Positions 28,801 to 34,800 of a DNA stretch of 64,000 nucleotides are shown here, piece by piece. The position numbers were made by a program. Within the stretch, counting starts at the first letter, position 1; each line of letters opens with the position of its first letter. Origin of the DNA: an uncultured Verrucomicrobiae bacterium (GTDB lineage: Bacteria; Verrucomicrobiota; Verrucomicrobiia; Chthoniobacterales; UBA10450); NCBI GenBank assembly GCA_963735805.1, contig CAVTMK010000002.1:1475822-1539821 (forward strand), written 5' to 3'.

Positions 28801-31800
28801 AACCCAGCGATTCGTTTGTCCTGCGCGGTTACGCCGACTGTGAGATCGACAATCAGAACGCACAGGTCTGCGCGACGGATGCTCCGTTCCGCGCGCATGA
28901 CACTGAAAACTTCAACCGAACTGGATTGTTTACCTCGTCGGCGAATTCCGGCCGTATCGATGAAAACGAAACTCCGACCGTTACGTTCGTACAAAATGTC
29001 GCTGGCATCGCGCGTAGTTCCCGCAAGCTCGTTTACAATCGCTCGTTCGCCACGCACGATCGAATTGATGAGGGAAGATTTTCCAACATTCGGTCGGCCG
29101 AGAATCGCGACAGCAAGAGAGGCGCGACTGGTGGCTTCTCGCTCGGGAGTCGGCGAGGGGAGAAGCCGGTCAATTGCCTCTAACAAATCCGAAATGCCTC
29201 GGCCATGTTCCGAGCTGATCGCAACACTGGACTCGAAGCCTAACGAATCGAACTCCGCCGCCAGCGCCTCGTGTTTTGGATCATCAATTTTGTTGATCAC
29301 GAGAACAACCGGTTTTCGAGATTTACGCAGCAAACGCGCGAGCTCTTCGTCGATCGGGGATAAACCGGATTTTGCATCGACGACGAAAAGCAGAAAATCA
29401 CTCTCGCCTAACGCCACCTCAGCGGCATGGCGTACTTGCATGCCTAATTCAGCCTCACCGCCCCCTAAAATTCCGCCAGTGTCCCATAAAACGAAGGGCC
29501 GCATACCTCGTGTGCAAACCGCCGATATTCTGTCGCGTGTAATTCCGGGCTGGTCATGAACAATCGCGATCTTTCGGCCAATCAGACGATTGAACAGCGC
29601 AGACTTGCCGACGTTTGGCCGCCCAATGATTGCGACGCTCGGCATATCTGTTCGGCCGTTCATCGCCCGGGGAATCCTTTCCTAACCTCGCTGCGGATGC
29701 GCATGCCCTTCGGCTTGCAGTTGGCGCACACCGTCCAGGACGTAAACCACTCCCGAGATCAAAGTAAAAACTCCTGCAACTACCACAACGAGAAACAACG
29801 GCAGAAAACGCAACTGCAACATCACCCAGGCAATCGCACACATCTGGCAAACGGTGGCTACCTTGCCCGTCCAGTTGGGTTTGACTCGCATTTTGTTGCC
29901 AATCAGTACATGCAGAATCACGGCGCCGACGAGAATGACTGCGTCACGCGTGATTACCAGGACCGGAAACCACACGGGAAAACTTCCATAGTCAGGATCA
30001 GACTCGCTCCAGTTACTGATACTCAGAGTGATGATGCCGCTCAAAAGCAATCCTTTGTCCGCTATTGGGTCTAGATACACTCCGAGCGAGCTGCGCTGGT
30101 TGTATCGCCGCGCAACGTATCCGTCCAGTCCGTCGCTTACGGCCGCAAGAATAAAAATGATGATCGCTGCGAAGCGCTGCCATTCCAGCGGCTGGCCGCG
30201 CTTGATGCTTTCACCATAATAAATCGCCATCGTCACAAAAGCCGGAATCATCAATATCCGGACGACAGTGATCTTGTTAGCCGTAGTCATAACGGGAATC
30301 GCAGACAATTGTAGGGCGTTTGATTCGCTCGCGCCAGCGGGCTCACCCCTGCGGTTTCTAGTCTAGGTCGTTTGGCGTTTTACTGGATGTACCTGCTAAG
30401 CTTTCGCTTCTAATTGGGGCGAGCGTTCGTAAAGTGCCAGTTAAGCTGAAGCCGCTTTTTTCTCTGCCGTCGGGATTCTAAAGCCTTCGATCTGTTTTTT
30501 GACTTCGTTCGCGAAACTGGCGGCGCGAGCCCCGTTTACAACGCGATGATCGAACGTAAGCGACAGAGTAATGACTTCCGCGCTTTCGTTTTTCTTTCCG
30601 TTTGGCATCAGCTCGCGATGAGCGGTGCCGACAAATAGCGTCCCGACTGAGGGTGGCACAACGATGGGGGCGCCGGCCTTTACGCCGAATGCGCCCAGAC
30701 TTGTAATCACAACCGGGGCGTTCATCGCATCGACACGGCCAGCGCGAGTAGCATCGACCGTTTCGTTGTAAGTCTGCGCGAACTCCGGCCAGGACTTCTT
30801 GTTCGCATCAACAATCACCGCTGTCGCGAGACGATCGTCTTCCAGCGCTACGGCGATGCCCAGGTCGAAATTTTCGTTCTCCACAATACGCTCGTCTTCA
30901 AAAATGAGGCGCCGAAACGGCGGATGCTTTTCCATGGCTCGCACCACTGCCCACGCGATCATCACCGAAGGAGAAGGGGCGTCTTTTCCATTCTTTCCTT
31001 TCGCTGCATCGCGCACCTTGCGAATTGTGTCCCATTGCACATCGATCTGCAGGTTGGCAGGGATCACATGAGCGAGTTTGCGCGTGATCGTCGGCGACAG
31101 AGCCGGTTCGATTGCTGTAGCCGGGGTCGCTGACCCCTGCCGCGTGATATCGCGCGGAGACCCTGAGAGGCCGCGGTCGGCGCCCGCGGCTACAGGCTCT
31201 CCCGCAGAGTCCTTAGCCGCTTCCTGAAAGTAGTCGGCAAACGATGATTCAGCGGTTAGGATCGTGCCAAGCTCCTGACCAATCTCGACCCTGTCGCCTA
31301 CTTTTGTTTTCCATTCGCCCATCACGCCTGTAAAGGACGACTGAATGGGATAAACAGCTTTGTCCGTTTCCACTTCGCAAAGCTCATCGTCGAGCGCAAT
31401 CGGATCGCCGGGATCCTTCAAAAGCGAAACCACTTTTGCGCTGCGGATTCCTTCACCCATGATGGGAACGGTGATGGTTTGAACAAGCTGCTTGCCGGTT
31501 TCGGCGGTAGACGGGGAGTCTGCGCCCAGCAGCGGCGCATGGGTAATGGGCGGGGCCGAGCGGCCGCGGCCAGTGACCGCGGCTACAGGACGTTCCTGCC
31601 TCGTTTCAATGGAGCGCTGAATTGCAGAGATGACCCGCTCAACGTCTGGTAACGCCGCGTACTCGTAAATCGGATTGTAACCGACCATCACGTTCGCTTT
31701 GCTAACCAGAATCGGGGGAGTGATCATTTCATTCCATAACTCTGGCTGACTCGTGATGTGAGAAATTAACATCTGCCCGACACTGCAACTCTCGGTGTCC

Positions 31801-34800
31801 TCCTGGACCACGACCAACCGGCGAGTCTTCCGCACTGATTCCTCAACTGCCGCTTTGTCCCACGGAACGATGGAACGCAGATCGATTAGTTCGACGCTGA
31901 CCGTGTCGCCGATCTTGTCCAGAGCTTCCAACGATTTCTCAATTGTATTGCCCCACGCAACGAGTGTGACCTCAGAGCCATCACGCAACTTGTGCGCCTC
32001 GCCCAGCGGAACCGCCTGGAGTGGTCCTGTGTACTCGTGTTCCGCCCAAAGGAGATGTTTGGGTATCAGAAACATCACGGGATCTTCACCATGCATGGCA
32101 GTCCAAAGCAATCCGGCGGCATCAGCGGGGGTGCTTGGTATGACAATGTTTAGCCCCGGATAATGTGCGAGCGCGGACTCGTTCGCCTGACTGTGCCACA
32201 AGCTTCCGCCGGGCAAATAAGCACCGTAGGGCGCATAAATCACCGCCGGACATTTCCAATTGCCGAACGACCGCCAACGCAAATTTGAAATATTTGTGAC
32301 CAACTGGTTGAACCCCGGATAAATGAAATCAATAAATTGCAATTCGAAGACCGGGCGTTTGCCGTATGCGGCCAGACCGCATGCGACACCAAGAATCGTC
32401 GATTCAGCAAGAGGCGAATTAAACACCTGTTTGGGAAACTCGGTTGAAAGCTTTTGCGTGAGCCGAAACACACCGCCCTTCGGATCCTCAATGTCCTCAC
32501 CAAAAAGGATGCGCCGGGGATCTTCCTCCAGACCGAGCCGCAATGTCTTGTTCACGGTATCCCCGATACGATATTTTCCAGGTGGCAGAATGTCCTTGTT
32601 AACCTTTGGAGGTAGTTCGCTCACGTTGGCAAGTAACTCGTTAGGCGACGGATCTTCGGCTTTTTCCGCCTCGGCATACTCGCGGCGAATGCGCTCCTTA
32701 ACTTCATTATCGAGCCTGGCGAATTCCTCGACAGTAATCGCGCCTTCCTCGATGAGTTGATGCTTCCAACTCTTGAGTGGATCTGATTTTTCCAGTGTCT
32801 GCAGTTCTTCCGCGCTGCGGTAAAGCTTCTGATCGTCGGAGCTGGTGTGACTGGAAAGGCGCTCCATCCTGATCCAAAAAAAGAACGGACCGCCCCCGGC
32901 GCGAATTTTTTCGAACGCTTCTGCGGTCGCGTCATGGACCTGTTGGACGTCCTGTCCTTCAATTCGACGCCAGTTGTCCGGTTCGAGAACTTTGAGTTCC
33001 AGCGGATTGTTCTTCCGCGTCGGCATGCTGATGCCGTAGCCGTTGTCTTCGACGAGAAAAAGCATGGGAAGTTTCTTCTCCTTGGCGAAACAGAGCGCTT
33101 CGAAAAAATCGCCCTGGCGTGTCGCTGCGTCACCGATCGTGGTGACAACGAGATTCTTTTTGCCGTCCAGCTGAATGCCCCACGCCATGCCGCACGCCGG
33201 AAGCAACTGCGAACCCGTCGGCGTCGGCACACTCCAGATGTGCAAATCCGCATTACTATAGTGCGATGGCATTTGCCGGCCGCCGCTTCCAGTATTCCGC
33301 TTGGCAAAATATTCCAGGCCCAGCTGTCGCGTGGTCATTCCGCGCCCGAGAACAAGGCCGCGGTCGCGATAATACGAAACGATGTAGTCATCAGGCTCCA
33401 TTTGGATCGAGACGGCTGCGAGCGCTTCGTGGCCCATTCCGGAAACATGAAAATGCCCCTTGCCCTGACGATTCAGATTCTGTTCACGCAGATCTGCATG
33501 GCGACTTTCCAGGATCGTGGTTAAAAGTCGCAGTTTATCTTCCTTGCTGAGCGCGGGCATACGGCATGATCTTACACAGCACTTACGGATGGACAATCAG
33601 ACGGACTTATTTCGAATAGGAAATGCACACCGAAAGAACAACATCAAAATTTGGCGTGATCGAGCGTTATCGGGAATATCTTCCCGTTACTGAGTTCACG
33701 CCGATTGTTTCCCTGGGCGAGGGGAGTACGCCGCTGGTGTTTTGCCCGCGATTGAGTAAGCGCGTCGGTCGCGCGGTTCTCGTCAAAAACGAAGGCCTAA
33801 ACCCAACGGGCTCGTTCAAGGACCGCGGCATGACCGTGGCAGTATCGAAAGCGATCGAGCGCGGCACAAAAACTCTCATTTGCGCCTCAACGGGGAACAC
33901 ATCGGCGTCCGCAGCGGCGTATGCAGCGCGCGCGGGAATCTCGTGCGCTGTAGTCTTGCCTGCTGGCAAGATCGCAAGAGGTAAATTGCTGCAGGCCGTC
34001 GCGTGCGGTGCAAAAATCATCGCCCTGGAAGGGAACTTCGATGACGCGCTACGGATCGTTCGGGAGCTTGGCGAACAGCGCGGTCTCGCCGTTGTAAATT
34101 CGATTAATCCGGATCGGATTGCGGGGCAGAAGACAGCTGCGTTCGAAATTGTTGATACTCTGAGCGACGCACCCGATTTTCATCTGCTGCCTGTGGGCAA
34201 TGCCGGAAACATCACCGCGTATTGGGCGGGCTATCGAGAATATCACGCGTGCGAAAGGTCCACGAAGTTACCGGTAATGATTGGCTTTCAATCCGCGGGC
34301 GCGGCGCCAATCTTTTACAATCGCATCGTTGAGAAACCGGAAACGGTTGCGTCGGCAATTCGCATTGGCAACCCGGCAAGTTGGAAGCAGGCCCGGACCG
34401 CGATCCTCGAATCGCGTGGCGCAATTGATGTTGTCAGTGACGAAGAACTTCTTGCGGCACAGACCTGGCTGGCGCAGCACGAGGGAATTTTTGTCGAACC
34501 GGCAAGTGCCGCGTCCATCGCAGGGCTTTTCAAATGCTGCGACTCGAAGAATGCAGCATATTCGTTTCAGAAGATTCCAGAGGAAAGCCGAATTGTTTGC
34601 ACGGTCACTGGGCATGGATTGAAAGATCCCGATGTGATTACTTCGACGATGAAGGAATTAAGATCTGTTCCTCCGACCCTGAGCGCTGTACAGAGCGCGA
34701 TTGAACTGTAGGCTTTGGTACGGCGTTTGTAGTGACTGCAATGCCACATGCCAGGTTTGCGTTGGAAGTTCGTGTTTCATAATCTAATTCTGTCATGCGC

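Follow-up and report, generated by a model that had tools for sequence, protein, structure and literature searches.

Decarboxylase, lipoyl arm and acyltransferase are normally separate subunits of branched-chain keto-acid dehydrogenase (BCKDH) complexes. Given that the 2-oxoacid dehydrogenases as a group are textbook megadalton machines built from many subunits, a gene that appears to carry all three functions on one polypeptide raises the question of what kind of enzyme it encodes and how that enzyme might assemble. Why these complexes are so large has itself been raised as a question (10.1101/2020.07.24.212647). Such a gene lies in the window analysed here, which is the whole stretch of 64,000 nucleotides from an uncultured Verrucomicrobiae bacterium. 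The chemistry of the fusion is expected to be ordinary. A natural one-gene E1-lipoyl-E2 protein, with a fixed 1:1:1 ratio and no docking domain, would allow a direct test of whether flux depends on a large core and on the tethering of E3. It would also permit the working of the lipoyl arm in cis and in trans to be distinguished, and it is a one-gene candidate for engineered production of branched acyl-CoA.

Gene structure and distribution

The five Pfam domains that an earlier note on this DNA had placed in one 1039-aa frame were reproduced exactly (Table 1). An AlphaFold2 model of the protein has a mean pLDDT of 86.5, with low confidence only at residues 656-689, 772-818 and 1033-1039. No NCBIfam assignment rises above its cut-off (NF008907 reaches 61 bits, its cut-off being 878), and the database label of the fusion names the E1 component only.

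Table 1. Features of the fusion gene and its divergent neighbours, in window coordinates.
Feature	Position	Strand	Description
Whole gene, E1alpha-E1beta-lipoyl-E2	30441..33560	-	Single stop-free frame from ATG at 33560; 1039 aa, ~114 kDa
E1alpha domain, aa 19-306	32643..33506	-	Pfam E1_dh, E=8.7e-52
E1alpha residues			ThDP/Mg motif G143-D144-A145...N173; pocket F37/Y64/M97/H100; catalytic H238
E1beta domains, aa 334-643	31632..32561	-	Pfam Transket_pyr 334-504, Transketolase_C 520-643
E1beta residues			E386, Q408-F409-x-D411, H456
Flexible linker 1, aa 656-689	31494..31595	-	pLDDT<50; A/P/G/S/T/E-rich
Single lipoyl domain, aa 695-767	31260..31478	-	Pfam Biotin_lipoyl, E=2.8e-14; predicted lipoyl-lysine K734 in D-K-A
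Flexible linker 2, aa 772-818	31107..31247	-	Usual place of the peripheral subunit-binding domain; none present
E2 acyltransferase core, aa 814-1026	30483..31121	-	Pfam 2-oxoacid_dh, E=1.1e-36
E2 core residues			T953, D1004-H1005-R1006-x-x-N1009-G1010
C-terminal tail with E-x-F	30444..30488	-	Tail motif comparison with canonical E2s
thrC (threonine synthase), divergent	33623..34711	+	TIGR00260 above cut-off
Aspartate kinase, divergent	34795..36045	+	NF005155 above cut-off

The gene is a real and intact single-chain E1alpha-E1beta-lipoyl-E2 gene. As had been claimed, the best 120 clusters (84-100% identity, 1025-1054 aa) all retain the same five families, and the frame recurs in 11 clusters at 50% identity. 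Matches to the E2 core (E<=1e-25) were found in 32 of 251 genomes of the phylum, representing six families, and in all 32 they are fused to the E1 part within frames of 1013-1140 aa that have zero internal stops. The earlier view that this is no assembly fusion, and that it is common to several families, is thus upheld by independent genomes. The same note had reported frames with a single stop. Given that the frames in the 32 genomes have no internal stop, the stops counted in 12 rows are terminal ones, as a direct check of five of these rows found. Among 65 loci found in GTDB with the E2 part as query, 43 have a frame spanning residues <=12 to >=1020, contig ends truncate 18, and four (L016, L028, L059 and L072) have an internal break, none of which falls at a domain boundary. 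These four breaks, and the fact that none of the public contigs compared covers the whole gene, are what could be cited in favour of an assembly or gene-calling artefact, a reading that is refuted by the recurrence of the frame described above and retains practically no probability. The hosts include the abundant soil bacteria Ca. Udaeobacter (Chthoniobacterales) and other Verrucomicrobiota.

Active site and substrate pocket of the E1 part

The best solved relative of the E1alpha domain is the alpha subunit of Thermus BCKDH (1UM9), and the E1beta domains match 1UM9_B (E=1.3e-60; Foldseek TM(target) 0.94). In an alignment of 62 homologues that are 30-88% identical to the query, the residues that we take to be cofactor-binding or catalytic, on the basis of PDB titles and residue numbering, are almost invariant: G143, N173, H238 and E386 are present in every row and H456 in 61. 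The ThDP motif is a variant in which Ala (A145) replaces Gly in 61 of the 62 rows and D144 gives way to Glu in 17. Residues F37, Y64, M97 and H100, whose equivalents presumably line the substrate pocket, align with identical residues of 1UM9 alpha, with M97 changed to Leu in 19 of the 62 rows. Overall, the fusion E1alpha aligns best with the Thermus and human BCKDH sequences, with which it has in common a G-R-Q-M-P-x-H segment and an H-(T/S)-S/T-x-D-D loop, and both of these are missing from the PDH alpha subunit of the same genome.

The sequence evidence supports the assignment of the fusion as a putative branched-chain-type enzyme whose E1 and E2, joined in a single polypeptide, occur in a fixed 1:1 ratio. 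We base the proposed branched-chain specificity on the pocket match, on the position of the fusion as a third E2, next to two canonical ones, in 30 of 32 fusion genomes, and on co-variation with a carboxylase orthologue in one family, f9 (see below). To this extent the reading in the earlier note stands; its suggestion of a minimal, self-assembling architecture is not supported, because E3 is still needed, finds no docking domain on this chain, and has no linked gene in any of the 32 genomes.

Lipoyl arm and E3

The predicted lipoylation site, K734, is conserved in all 62 rows, and LipA is encoded in the genome. Linker 1 varies from 15 to 63 aa across the rows and consists to 71% of A, P, G, S, T and E, and the region of linker 2 is unconserved and 21-105 aa long. 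The reported lack of any peripheral subunit-binding domain (PSBD) is borne out: the E3_binding family was found at E<=1 in none of 16 fusion C-terminal halves, versus all three canonical E2s of this genome. Among the unfused relatives sampled, the nearest, which comes from genome G004, retains this domain.

E3 genes above the cut-off are present in all 32 fusion genomes (two in 30 of them, one in the other two), and none lies within 100 kb of the fusion. Given that there is neither a subunit-binding domain nor a linked gene, E3 is probably shared with other complexes and untethered. A single gene of this genome passes the E3 cut-off. The supposed frameshifted dihydrolipoyl dehydrogenase (G000:C3:262572-263979) proved to be something else, since its best match is to the FAD oxidoreductase family PRK06370 (631.6 bits, versus 263.7 for lipoamide_DH). 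The only additional E3-like flavoprotein that is common in fusion genomes occurs in 47 of the 251 genomes, 17 of which have no fusion, and was not found in G000, the genome studied here, or in G048.

E2 core and C-terminal tail

The catalytic set of the E2 part is also retained, with D1004, H1005, G1010 and T/S953 in all 62 rows and N1009 in 61. Its model is confident (pLDDT 91.6) and resembles solved structures that contain an E2 domain, the top 46 of which give Z scores of 23.4-26.7. Sequence identity to solved E2s is only 18-26%, and therefore acyl specificity cannot be read from the core. The Asn that follows the E2 histidine has a precedent, judging by entry titles, in Azotobacter vinelandii E2 entries (Ser558/His610/Asn614).

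The tail of the fusion carries E-x-F, versus E-x-P-x-x-L in the three canonical E2s of this genome; among 203 fusion-length proteins, Phe occupies this position in 185 and Pro in none. The unfused E2 of G004 carries E-x-F as well, and thus we reject the motif as an adaptation to fusion. It is also not the actinobacterial three-residue insertion, because the Phe takes the place of the canonical Pro, with the same spacing from D-H-R and nothing inserted. Canonical cores of 24 or 60 subunits assemble through a C-terminal 3-10 helix; the model, for which no canonical E2 was folded as a control, shows no helix past residue 1025. Hydrophobic residues are conserved at F1027 and I/L1029, and many members end 5-6 residues past E1025. 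In Mycobacterium tuberculosis, DlaT assembles into hexamers and dodecamers through contacts of another kind (PMC12995895), which indicates that loss of the canonical tail alone does not fix the oligomer.

Other dehydrogenases and gene neighbourhood

PDH and OGDH are encoded in this genome together with a third set (C4:837760-841120) that is split into E1alpha, E1beta and E2 and includes a subunit-binding domain. The earlier note had recognized the ordinary PDH and overlooked the third set, whose closest relative is likewise Thermus BCKDH alpha and which could perform the branched-chain function of this genome, alone or jointly with the fusion. The split set is present in 41 genomes without this E1 type, and the two occur together in two of 251. 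Exactly three E2 cores (two canonical and the fusion) are found in 30 of the 32 fusion genomes, versus two in all 14 tested relatives without the fusion, and canonical PDH- and OGDH-type E2s stand beside the fusion in all 32.

The gene thrC adjoins the fusion in 39 of 63 loci, mostly of close kin, and aspartate kinase is found in 36; the thrC association is probably inherited synteny. A neighbouring carboxyltransferase (12 of 63 loci) is closest to the methylcrotonyl-CoA carboxylase beta subunit (3U9R, E=5e-135), with propionyl-CoA carboxylases, from 1VRG down, at E>=4e-83, and other loci include a crotonase (13 of 63) or an HMG-CoA-lyase-like gene (5 of 63). In family f9, an orthologue of this carboxyltransferase (>=67% identity) occurs in seven of eight genomes with the fusion and in none of 11 without it, counts that are drawn among kin and so overstate independence. 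Both the fusion and a third E2 are missing from at least 11 f9 genomes, which implies that the fusion is dispensable there. No acyl-CoA dehydrogenase match was found in 19 of 22 fusion genomes of families f8, f11, f13 and f16. FabH was present in all five genomes tested.

Comparison with known systems

In its E1alpha/beta fold, active-site residues, lipoyl domain and E2 core, the fusion resembles BCKDH complexes with an alpha2beta2 E1 (Thermus thermophilus 1UM9, human 1DTW and Pseudomonas putida 1QS0), from which it differs in being one chain, with no PSBD, an altered E2 C-terminus and no linked E3 gene. Joining E1 to E2 is not new in itself, given that the structure of OdhA/KGD has been solved (8P5V, 8P5R; PMC10415282) and a Thermoleophilia fusion predicted (10.1101/2020.07.24.212647). 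OdhA/KGD is an actinobacterial E2o-E1o fusion whose homohexamer resolves the mismatch between two-fold and three-fold symmetry and which uses a shared E3 (PMC10415282). It likewise places both catalytic domains on one polypeptide and faces the same symmetry problem. However, its E2 comes first, its E1o is a homodimeric 2-oxoglutarate type, its lipoyl domain is supplied in trans, and its E2 end has a Phe-containing three-residue insertion that the fusion lacks. The Verrucomicrobiota protein begins with an alpha/beta-type E1 and carries a lipoyl arm of its own, flanked by two long linkers. The 'LB-PS-E2-E1' full fusion of Thermoleophilia, described in silico from domain architecture (10.1101/2020.07.24.212647), also unites lipoyl, E2 and E1 parts, but it has two lipoyl domains, keeps the E3-binding domain, and runs in the opposite order with an E1o-type enzyme. 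Our literature search found no E1-E2 fusion of the branched-chain type. The novelty lies in an E1 of the alpha/beta type, in the E1-lipoyl-E2 order and in the missing docking domain.

G004 encodes a fused E1alpha-beta protein (689 aa) and a lipoyl-PSBD-E2 protein (415 aa) from adjacent genes in the same order. Its E1 is 42% identical to that of the fusion and its E2 shares the E-x-F tail; it differs in the separate chains, the PSBD and an Asp after the catalytic His. This two-gene form is a plausible model of the pre-fusion state, although a quick tree places its E2 apart from the fused E2s.

Proposed function and alternative explanations

We consider it reasonably probable that the protein combines branched-chain E1 and E2 in a single polypeptide, depends on a shared E3 and forms a homohexamer. 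The E1alpha/beta parts of two chains would associate in the manner of an alpha2beta2 E1 and, with ThDP/Mg bound, decarboxylate the keto acids derived from Leu, Ile or Val; these activities are proposed from the residues observed. The acyl group would then move to the lipoyl-lysine, hung between the two flexible linkers, and trimeric E2 cores would pass it to CoA by means of H1005 and T953, both of which are in place. With no docking domain, the shared E3, whether free or held on PDH/OGDH cores, would reoxidise the dihydrolipoyl arm. Since E1 dimers are two-fold and E2 trimers three-fold, a hexamer is the smallest closed form, and this symmetry and the OdhA precedent suggest a particle of ~685 kDa in which two E2 trimers carry three tethered E1 dimers. 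We infer that use of the product differs by lineage: in genomes that have methylcrotonyl-CoA carboxylase and acyl-CoA dehydrogenases, this one included, it may enter leucine catabolism, and it may provide primers for FabH-made branched fatty acids where those enzymes were not found.

The same chemistry could also be housed in a canonical cubic 24-mer (~2.7 MDa) built by the E2 part, with 12 tethered E1 dimers on the two-fold axes, or in a larger or open network. Such an arrangement should fit both symmetries as well, the long linkers would permit it, F1027 and I/L1029 could serve as the knob, and the E2 model fits cubic cores no better or worse than trimeric ones (Z within ~1 for the top rows). 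Nevertheless, we judge it rather unlikely, on account of the missing Pro, the unpredicted C-terminal helix (subject to the control mentioned above), the early ends of many members, and the fact that the sole solved E1-E2 fusion is a hexamer (PMC10415282). Less likely again is a preference for 2-oxobutyrate, pyruvate or a broad set of substrates, with the split third set acting as the true BCKDH here. The thrC and aspartate kinase neighbours, the NCBIfam result, and a third set that resembles BCKDH alpha and occurs without this E1 type would agree with this. They are countered by the pocket match to Thermus and human BCKDH, the leucine-catabolic neighbours and co-variation, the PDH- and OGDH-type E2s that every fusion genome also has, and the restriction of the thrC synteny to close kin. 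We give very little weight to an acyl acceptor other than CoA, such as acyl carrier protein (ACP), or to reoxidation of the arm by a dedicated non-E3 flavoprotein. Even though the E1alpha/beta-lipoyl module is joined to KAS III in 37 of 150 representatives and to thioesterase or PKS modules in others, one E2-type member ends in ACP, and the E2 core is divergent with Asn instead of Asp, the E2 fold and catalytic residues are intact, and the extra E3-like flavoprotein tracks lineage and not the fusion.

The hexamer that we prefer may also be viewed more broadly, although we offer this picture tentatively and hold it to be possible at best. The enzyme would be a closed homohexamer of ~0.7 MDa whose own lipoyl arms channel the acyl groups and which has abandoned E3 docking. 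It would represent one form of a modular 'acyl-donor cassette', E1alpha/beta-lipoyl, that has exchanged its C-terminal acceptor in evolution among E2 core, KAS III, thioesterase and PKS modules. In Verrucomicrobiota, branched acyl primers might then be made by alternative routes, through fusion to E2, through fusion to KAS III or through the split third set. The E1alpha-E1beta-lipoyl-KAS III (FabH) fusion shares the E1-lipoyl module, has KAS III in place of the E2 core, and is the sister group on the E1 tree; all eight phylum matches of 1100-1210 aa that were checked are of this type. On the E1 tree, one E2-bearing protein, P0150, falls within the KAS III group, yet its E2 groups with the fused E2s.

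Domain organization and conservation of the fusion

A single frame of 1039 codons encodes a protein in which E1alpha, E1beta, a lipoyl domain and E2 follow one another on one chain. The five-domain Pfam layout claimed for this protein in an earlier note was reproduced within that frame, and no NCBIfam model scores above its own cut-off. An AlphaFold2 model built from a 62-row alignment has a mean pLDDT of 86.5, with low confidence only in the linkers (residues 656-689 and 772-818) and the tail. No sequence match to solved structures spans the whole fusion, nor does any solved structure cover the whole chain, the best query-normalised TM score being 0.51 among the matches listed. 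The GC content of the gene is 55% versus 54% for the window, and scans for promoters (3 versus 1.8) and terminators (7 versus 4.8) were at chance level.

Features of the fusion and of other loci discussed in the text (G000, genome under study; C3 and C4, its contigs; L numbers, loci)
Feature	Location	Remarks
Fusion gene	window 30441-33560 (-)	1039 aa
E1_dh	aa 19-306 of fusion	Pfam
Transket_pyr	aa 334-504 of fusion	Pfam
Transketolase_C	aa 520-643 of fusion	Pfam
Biotin_lipoyl	aa 695-767 of fusion	Pfam
2-oxoacid_dh	aa 814-1026 of fusion	Pfam
Split E1alpha/E1beta/E2 set	G000:C4:837760-841120 (L126, L003)	weak PSBD, unusual alpha motifs, no linked E3
PRK06370-type FAD oxidoreductase	G000:C3:262572-263979 (L007, L008)	frameshifted
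E3/MerA-like disulfide reductase	L137:2237-3613	C-I-L-R-G-C motif
IcmF-like isobutyryl-CoA mutase/GTPase	L107:263-3345	two adjacent genes
bat-like operon	window 19479-25251 (-)	

The fusion is real and conserved, and not an artefact. The earlier note's view that it is no assembly product holds: the five Pfam families are kept in all 120 listed clusters, and 32 phylum genomes agree. These 32, from a sample of 251, have E2-core matches at E<=1e-25 (G000 itself and, by family, f1 1/1, f8 17/19, f9 8/20, f11 2/3, f13 2/2 and f16 1/1), and their E1 parts lie in frames of 1013-1140 aa without an internal stop. The 'single stop' that the note had reported in some frames proved to be the natural end of shorter members (5 of 12 checked). 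Among 65 GTDB loci found via the E2 part, 43 are full-length single frames, 18 end at a contig edge and four have an internal break located away from the domain boundaries. The full architecture occurs in 11 of the best 150 representatives at 50% clustering.

Source names on the carriers are Ca. Udaeobacter, Chthoniobacterales, Opitutaceae, Methylacidiphilales and Verrucomicrobiota. All named matches belong to Verrucomicrobiota except one 'Dormiibacterota' contig and one 'Blastochloris' MAG label, both of which are possibly mis-binned. Over the E2 part, the copy on the former contig (L025, labelled Ca. Dormiibacterota) shares 87% identity with the query.

No single contig of the public sequencing runs examined spans the whole gene; the beta-lipoyl junction is bridged in run X1, which may be the source sample. 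Two RNA runs provide short pieces over 11 of 30 bins, which are no evidence of transcription. A contig from run X5 makes a join across window positions 31137-31564, which would remove the lipoyl domain; this join, whose short side has 24 letters at 85% likeness, is probably spurious.

Catalytic residues and relation to known systems

Residues H238, E386, K734, D1004, H1005 and G1010 are invariant in the 62-row alignment, every row has Thr or Ser at position 953, and H456 and N1009 are each kept in 61 rows. Asn at the latter position has a precedent in the E2 of A. vinelandii, according to structure entry titles. When modelled alone, E2 has a pLDDT of 91.6 and matches solved E2 cores with Z scores of up to 26.7 and an rmsd of about 2.3-2.7 A. 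The catalytic parts look alive and the protein is probably active, although two features speak against this: the ThDP motif of E1 is a variant (A145, with D144 replaced by Glu in 17 of 62 rows), and E2 is just 18-26% identical to the solved cores.

E1-E2 fusions have been published for 2-oxoglutarate dehydrogenase (OdhA/KGD; PMC10415282), and a lipoyl-PSBD-E2-E1o fusion has been predicted in Thermoleophilia (10.1101/2020.07.24.212647). Our protein is not an OdhA, and it differs from BCKDH in having neither separate subunits nor a docking domain. A search of openly available full texts found no description of an alpha/beta-type E1-lipoyl-E2 chain. E1-E2 fusion as such is already known, but its alpha/beta-type form on one chain appears new, unless mentioned in subscription papers or supplements.

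E3 supply and the missing docking domain

The earlier report that a peripheral-subunit-binding domain is lacking was borne out, as no E3-binding domain was found at E<=1 in 16 fusion C-terminal halves, versus three of three canonical E2s of G000 searched as a control. Between the lipoyl domain and E2, the linker shows no conservation and can be only 21 residues long. Genome G004 holds the nearest unfused relative sampled, a two-gene form (fused E1alpha-beta plus a separate lipoyl-PSBD-E2) in which the docking domain is kept.

All 32 fusion genomes encode E3 above cut-off (two in 30 genomes, one in two), never near the fusion, and the sole E3 of G000, at G000:C1:380750-382156, adjoins OGDH. The simplest reading would be that E3 is shared and untethered. 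The glycine-cleavage H/L pair is an example of E3 acting without a docking domain. A gene previously taken for a frameshifted dihydrolipoyl dehydrogenase is instead a PRK06370-type FAD oxidoreductase. An extra E3-like flavoprotein was rejected as a dedicated E3 because it tracks lineage rather than the fusion: it is present in 47 of 251 genomes, 17 of which have no fusion, scores under the cut-off in the majority of fusion genomes, and was found in neither G000 nor genome G048. An unassigned E3/MerA-like disulfide reductase and its orthologues (47 of 251 genomes) fall under every NCBIfam cut-off.

Oligomeric state

With a two-fold axis required by E1 and a three-fold axis by E2, six chains of 114 kDa would be the smallest closed form of the fusion, a homohexamer of ~685 kDa. 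In OdhA this symmetry problem is resolved by a hexamer (PMC10415282). The symmetry would also allow a 24-mer carrying 12 E1 dimers. Cubic and icosahedral cores require a C-terminal 3-10 helix (10.1101/2020.07.24.212647; PMC8740704), and two observations argue against such a core here. The three canonical E2s of G000 terminate in E-x-P-x-x-L, and among 203 fusion-length proteins the canonical Pro position is Phe in 185 and Pro in none. In addition, no C-terminal helix is predicted in the fusion E2 model, which was made without a canonical control. On the other hand, M. tuberculosis DlaT reaches higher oligomers by other routes (PMC12995895).

Fold comparison left cubic and trimeric E2 relatives tied in top Z values, and complex prediction with E1 (1-655) and the E2 core (816-1032) returned no answer (score 0.00). 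The idea that the E-x-F tail is a fusion-specific trimer lock is weakened, because the unfused E2 of G004 shares this tail. Nor does the tail correspond to the actinobacterial insertion, as the fusion has no insertion.

Predicted substrate and genomic partners

The fusion E1alpha is closest to BCKDH of Thermus (1UM9) and human, with which it has in common F37, Y64, a G-R-Q-M-P-x-H segment and the H238 loop; these residues line the substrate pocket. The PDH alpha of G000 is without that segment and has a different loop. The fusion is predicted to work like BCKDH E1 plus E2. In 30 of 32 genomes it accompanies two canonical E2s as the third, whereas each of the 14 fusion-free relatives tested has two E2s. 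G000 and G048 have a fourth E2, within a split alpha/beta/E2 set that bears a docking domain and whose alpha is likewise closest to 1UM9. Of 251 genomes, 43 contain the split set and 55 a fusion-type E1; G000 and G048 alone contain both. This complicates the role of the fusion, as the split set could share the BCKDH-like job in G000 or do it alone.

At 63 loci, the genes adjoining the fusion include those for a carboxyltransferase (12), a crotonase (13), and HMG-CoA-lyase-like and FadJ-like proteins (5 each), although these counts and the co-occurrences below were taken among kin and thus are not independent. The nearest relative of the carboxyltransferase is methylcrotonyl-CoA carboxylase beta, and its orthologue is found in nine of 32 fusion genomes (f1 2/2, f9 7/8, others 0/22) and in none of the 11 fusion-free genomes of f9. 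A match to acyl-CoA dehydrogenase is absent from 19 of the 22 fusion genomes of f8, f11, f13 and f16, and FabH was found in all five genomes tested. We infer that the fusion serves catabolism in f1 and f9, and elsewhere supplies primers for branched fatty acids. Verrucomicrobial branched fatty acids have been ascribed to a BKD complex in two reports whose available text does not describe its genes (10.1101/2025.09.03.673897; PMC9328018). An IcmF-like isobutyryl-CoA mutase/GTPase, encoded as two adjacent genes, adjoins one fusion gene.

Related architectures

The closest sister architecture carries KAS III in place of E2 and accounts for 37 of the best 150 representatives (P0154, P0158 and 35 more), and for all eight checked phylum loci of 1100-1210 aa (L129-L136). 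These E1alpha-E1beta-lipoyl-KAS III proteins could prime fatty-acid synthesis straight off the lipoyl arm. The same E1(-lipoyl) module also ends in E2 plus ACP (P0133), a thioesterase (P0201), KAS III plus KR (P0209), PKS-NRPS (P0230), about 270 residues without a Pfam match (P0161), or CHASE2 and a cyclase in a possibly chimeric protein (P0227).

Trees were made with FastTree only. For 119 E1 rows, E2- and KAS III-bearing proteins, with some that are E1 only, form one supported group in which neither label is a single clade. A 33-row E2 tree, a weak test, places 29 fused cores on one side of a branch and four split E2s on the other. Representative P0150 combines an E1 of the KAS group with an E2 of the fused type, a mix that suggests acceptor swapping in the evolution of the E1-lipoyl module.

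ESM Atlas rows 6-14, with scores <0.9, offer only leads to further partial fusions, namely E1beta-E2 clusters of 686 aa (mostly Actinomycetota) and 774 aa (mostly Pseudomonadota), as well as proteins of 1314-1468 aa that combine E2 and E1 families. Elsewhere in the window lies an ordinary bat-like operon that encodes a MoxR AAA+ ATPase, DUF58 and DUF4381 proteins and two BatA/VWA proteins.
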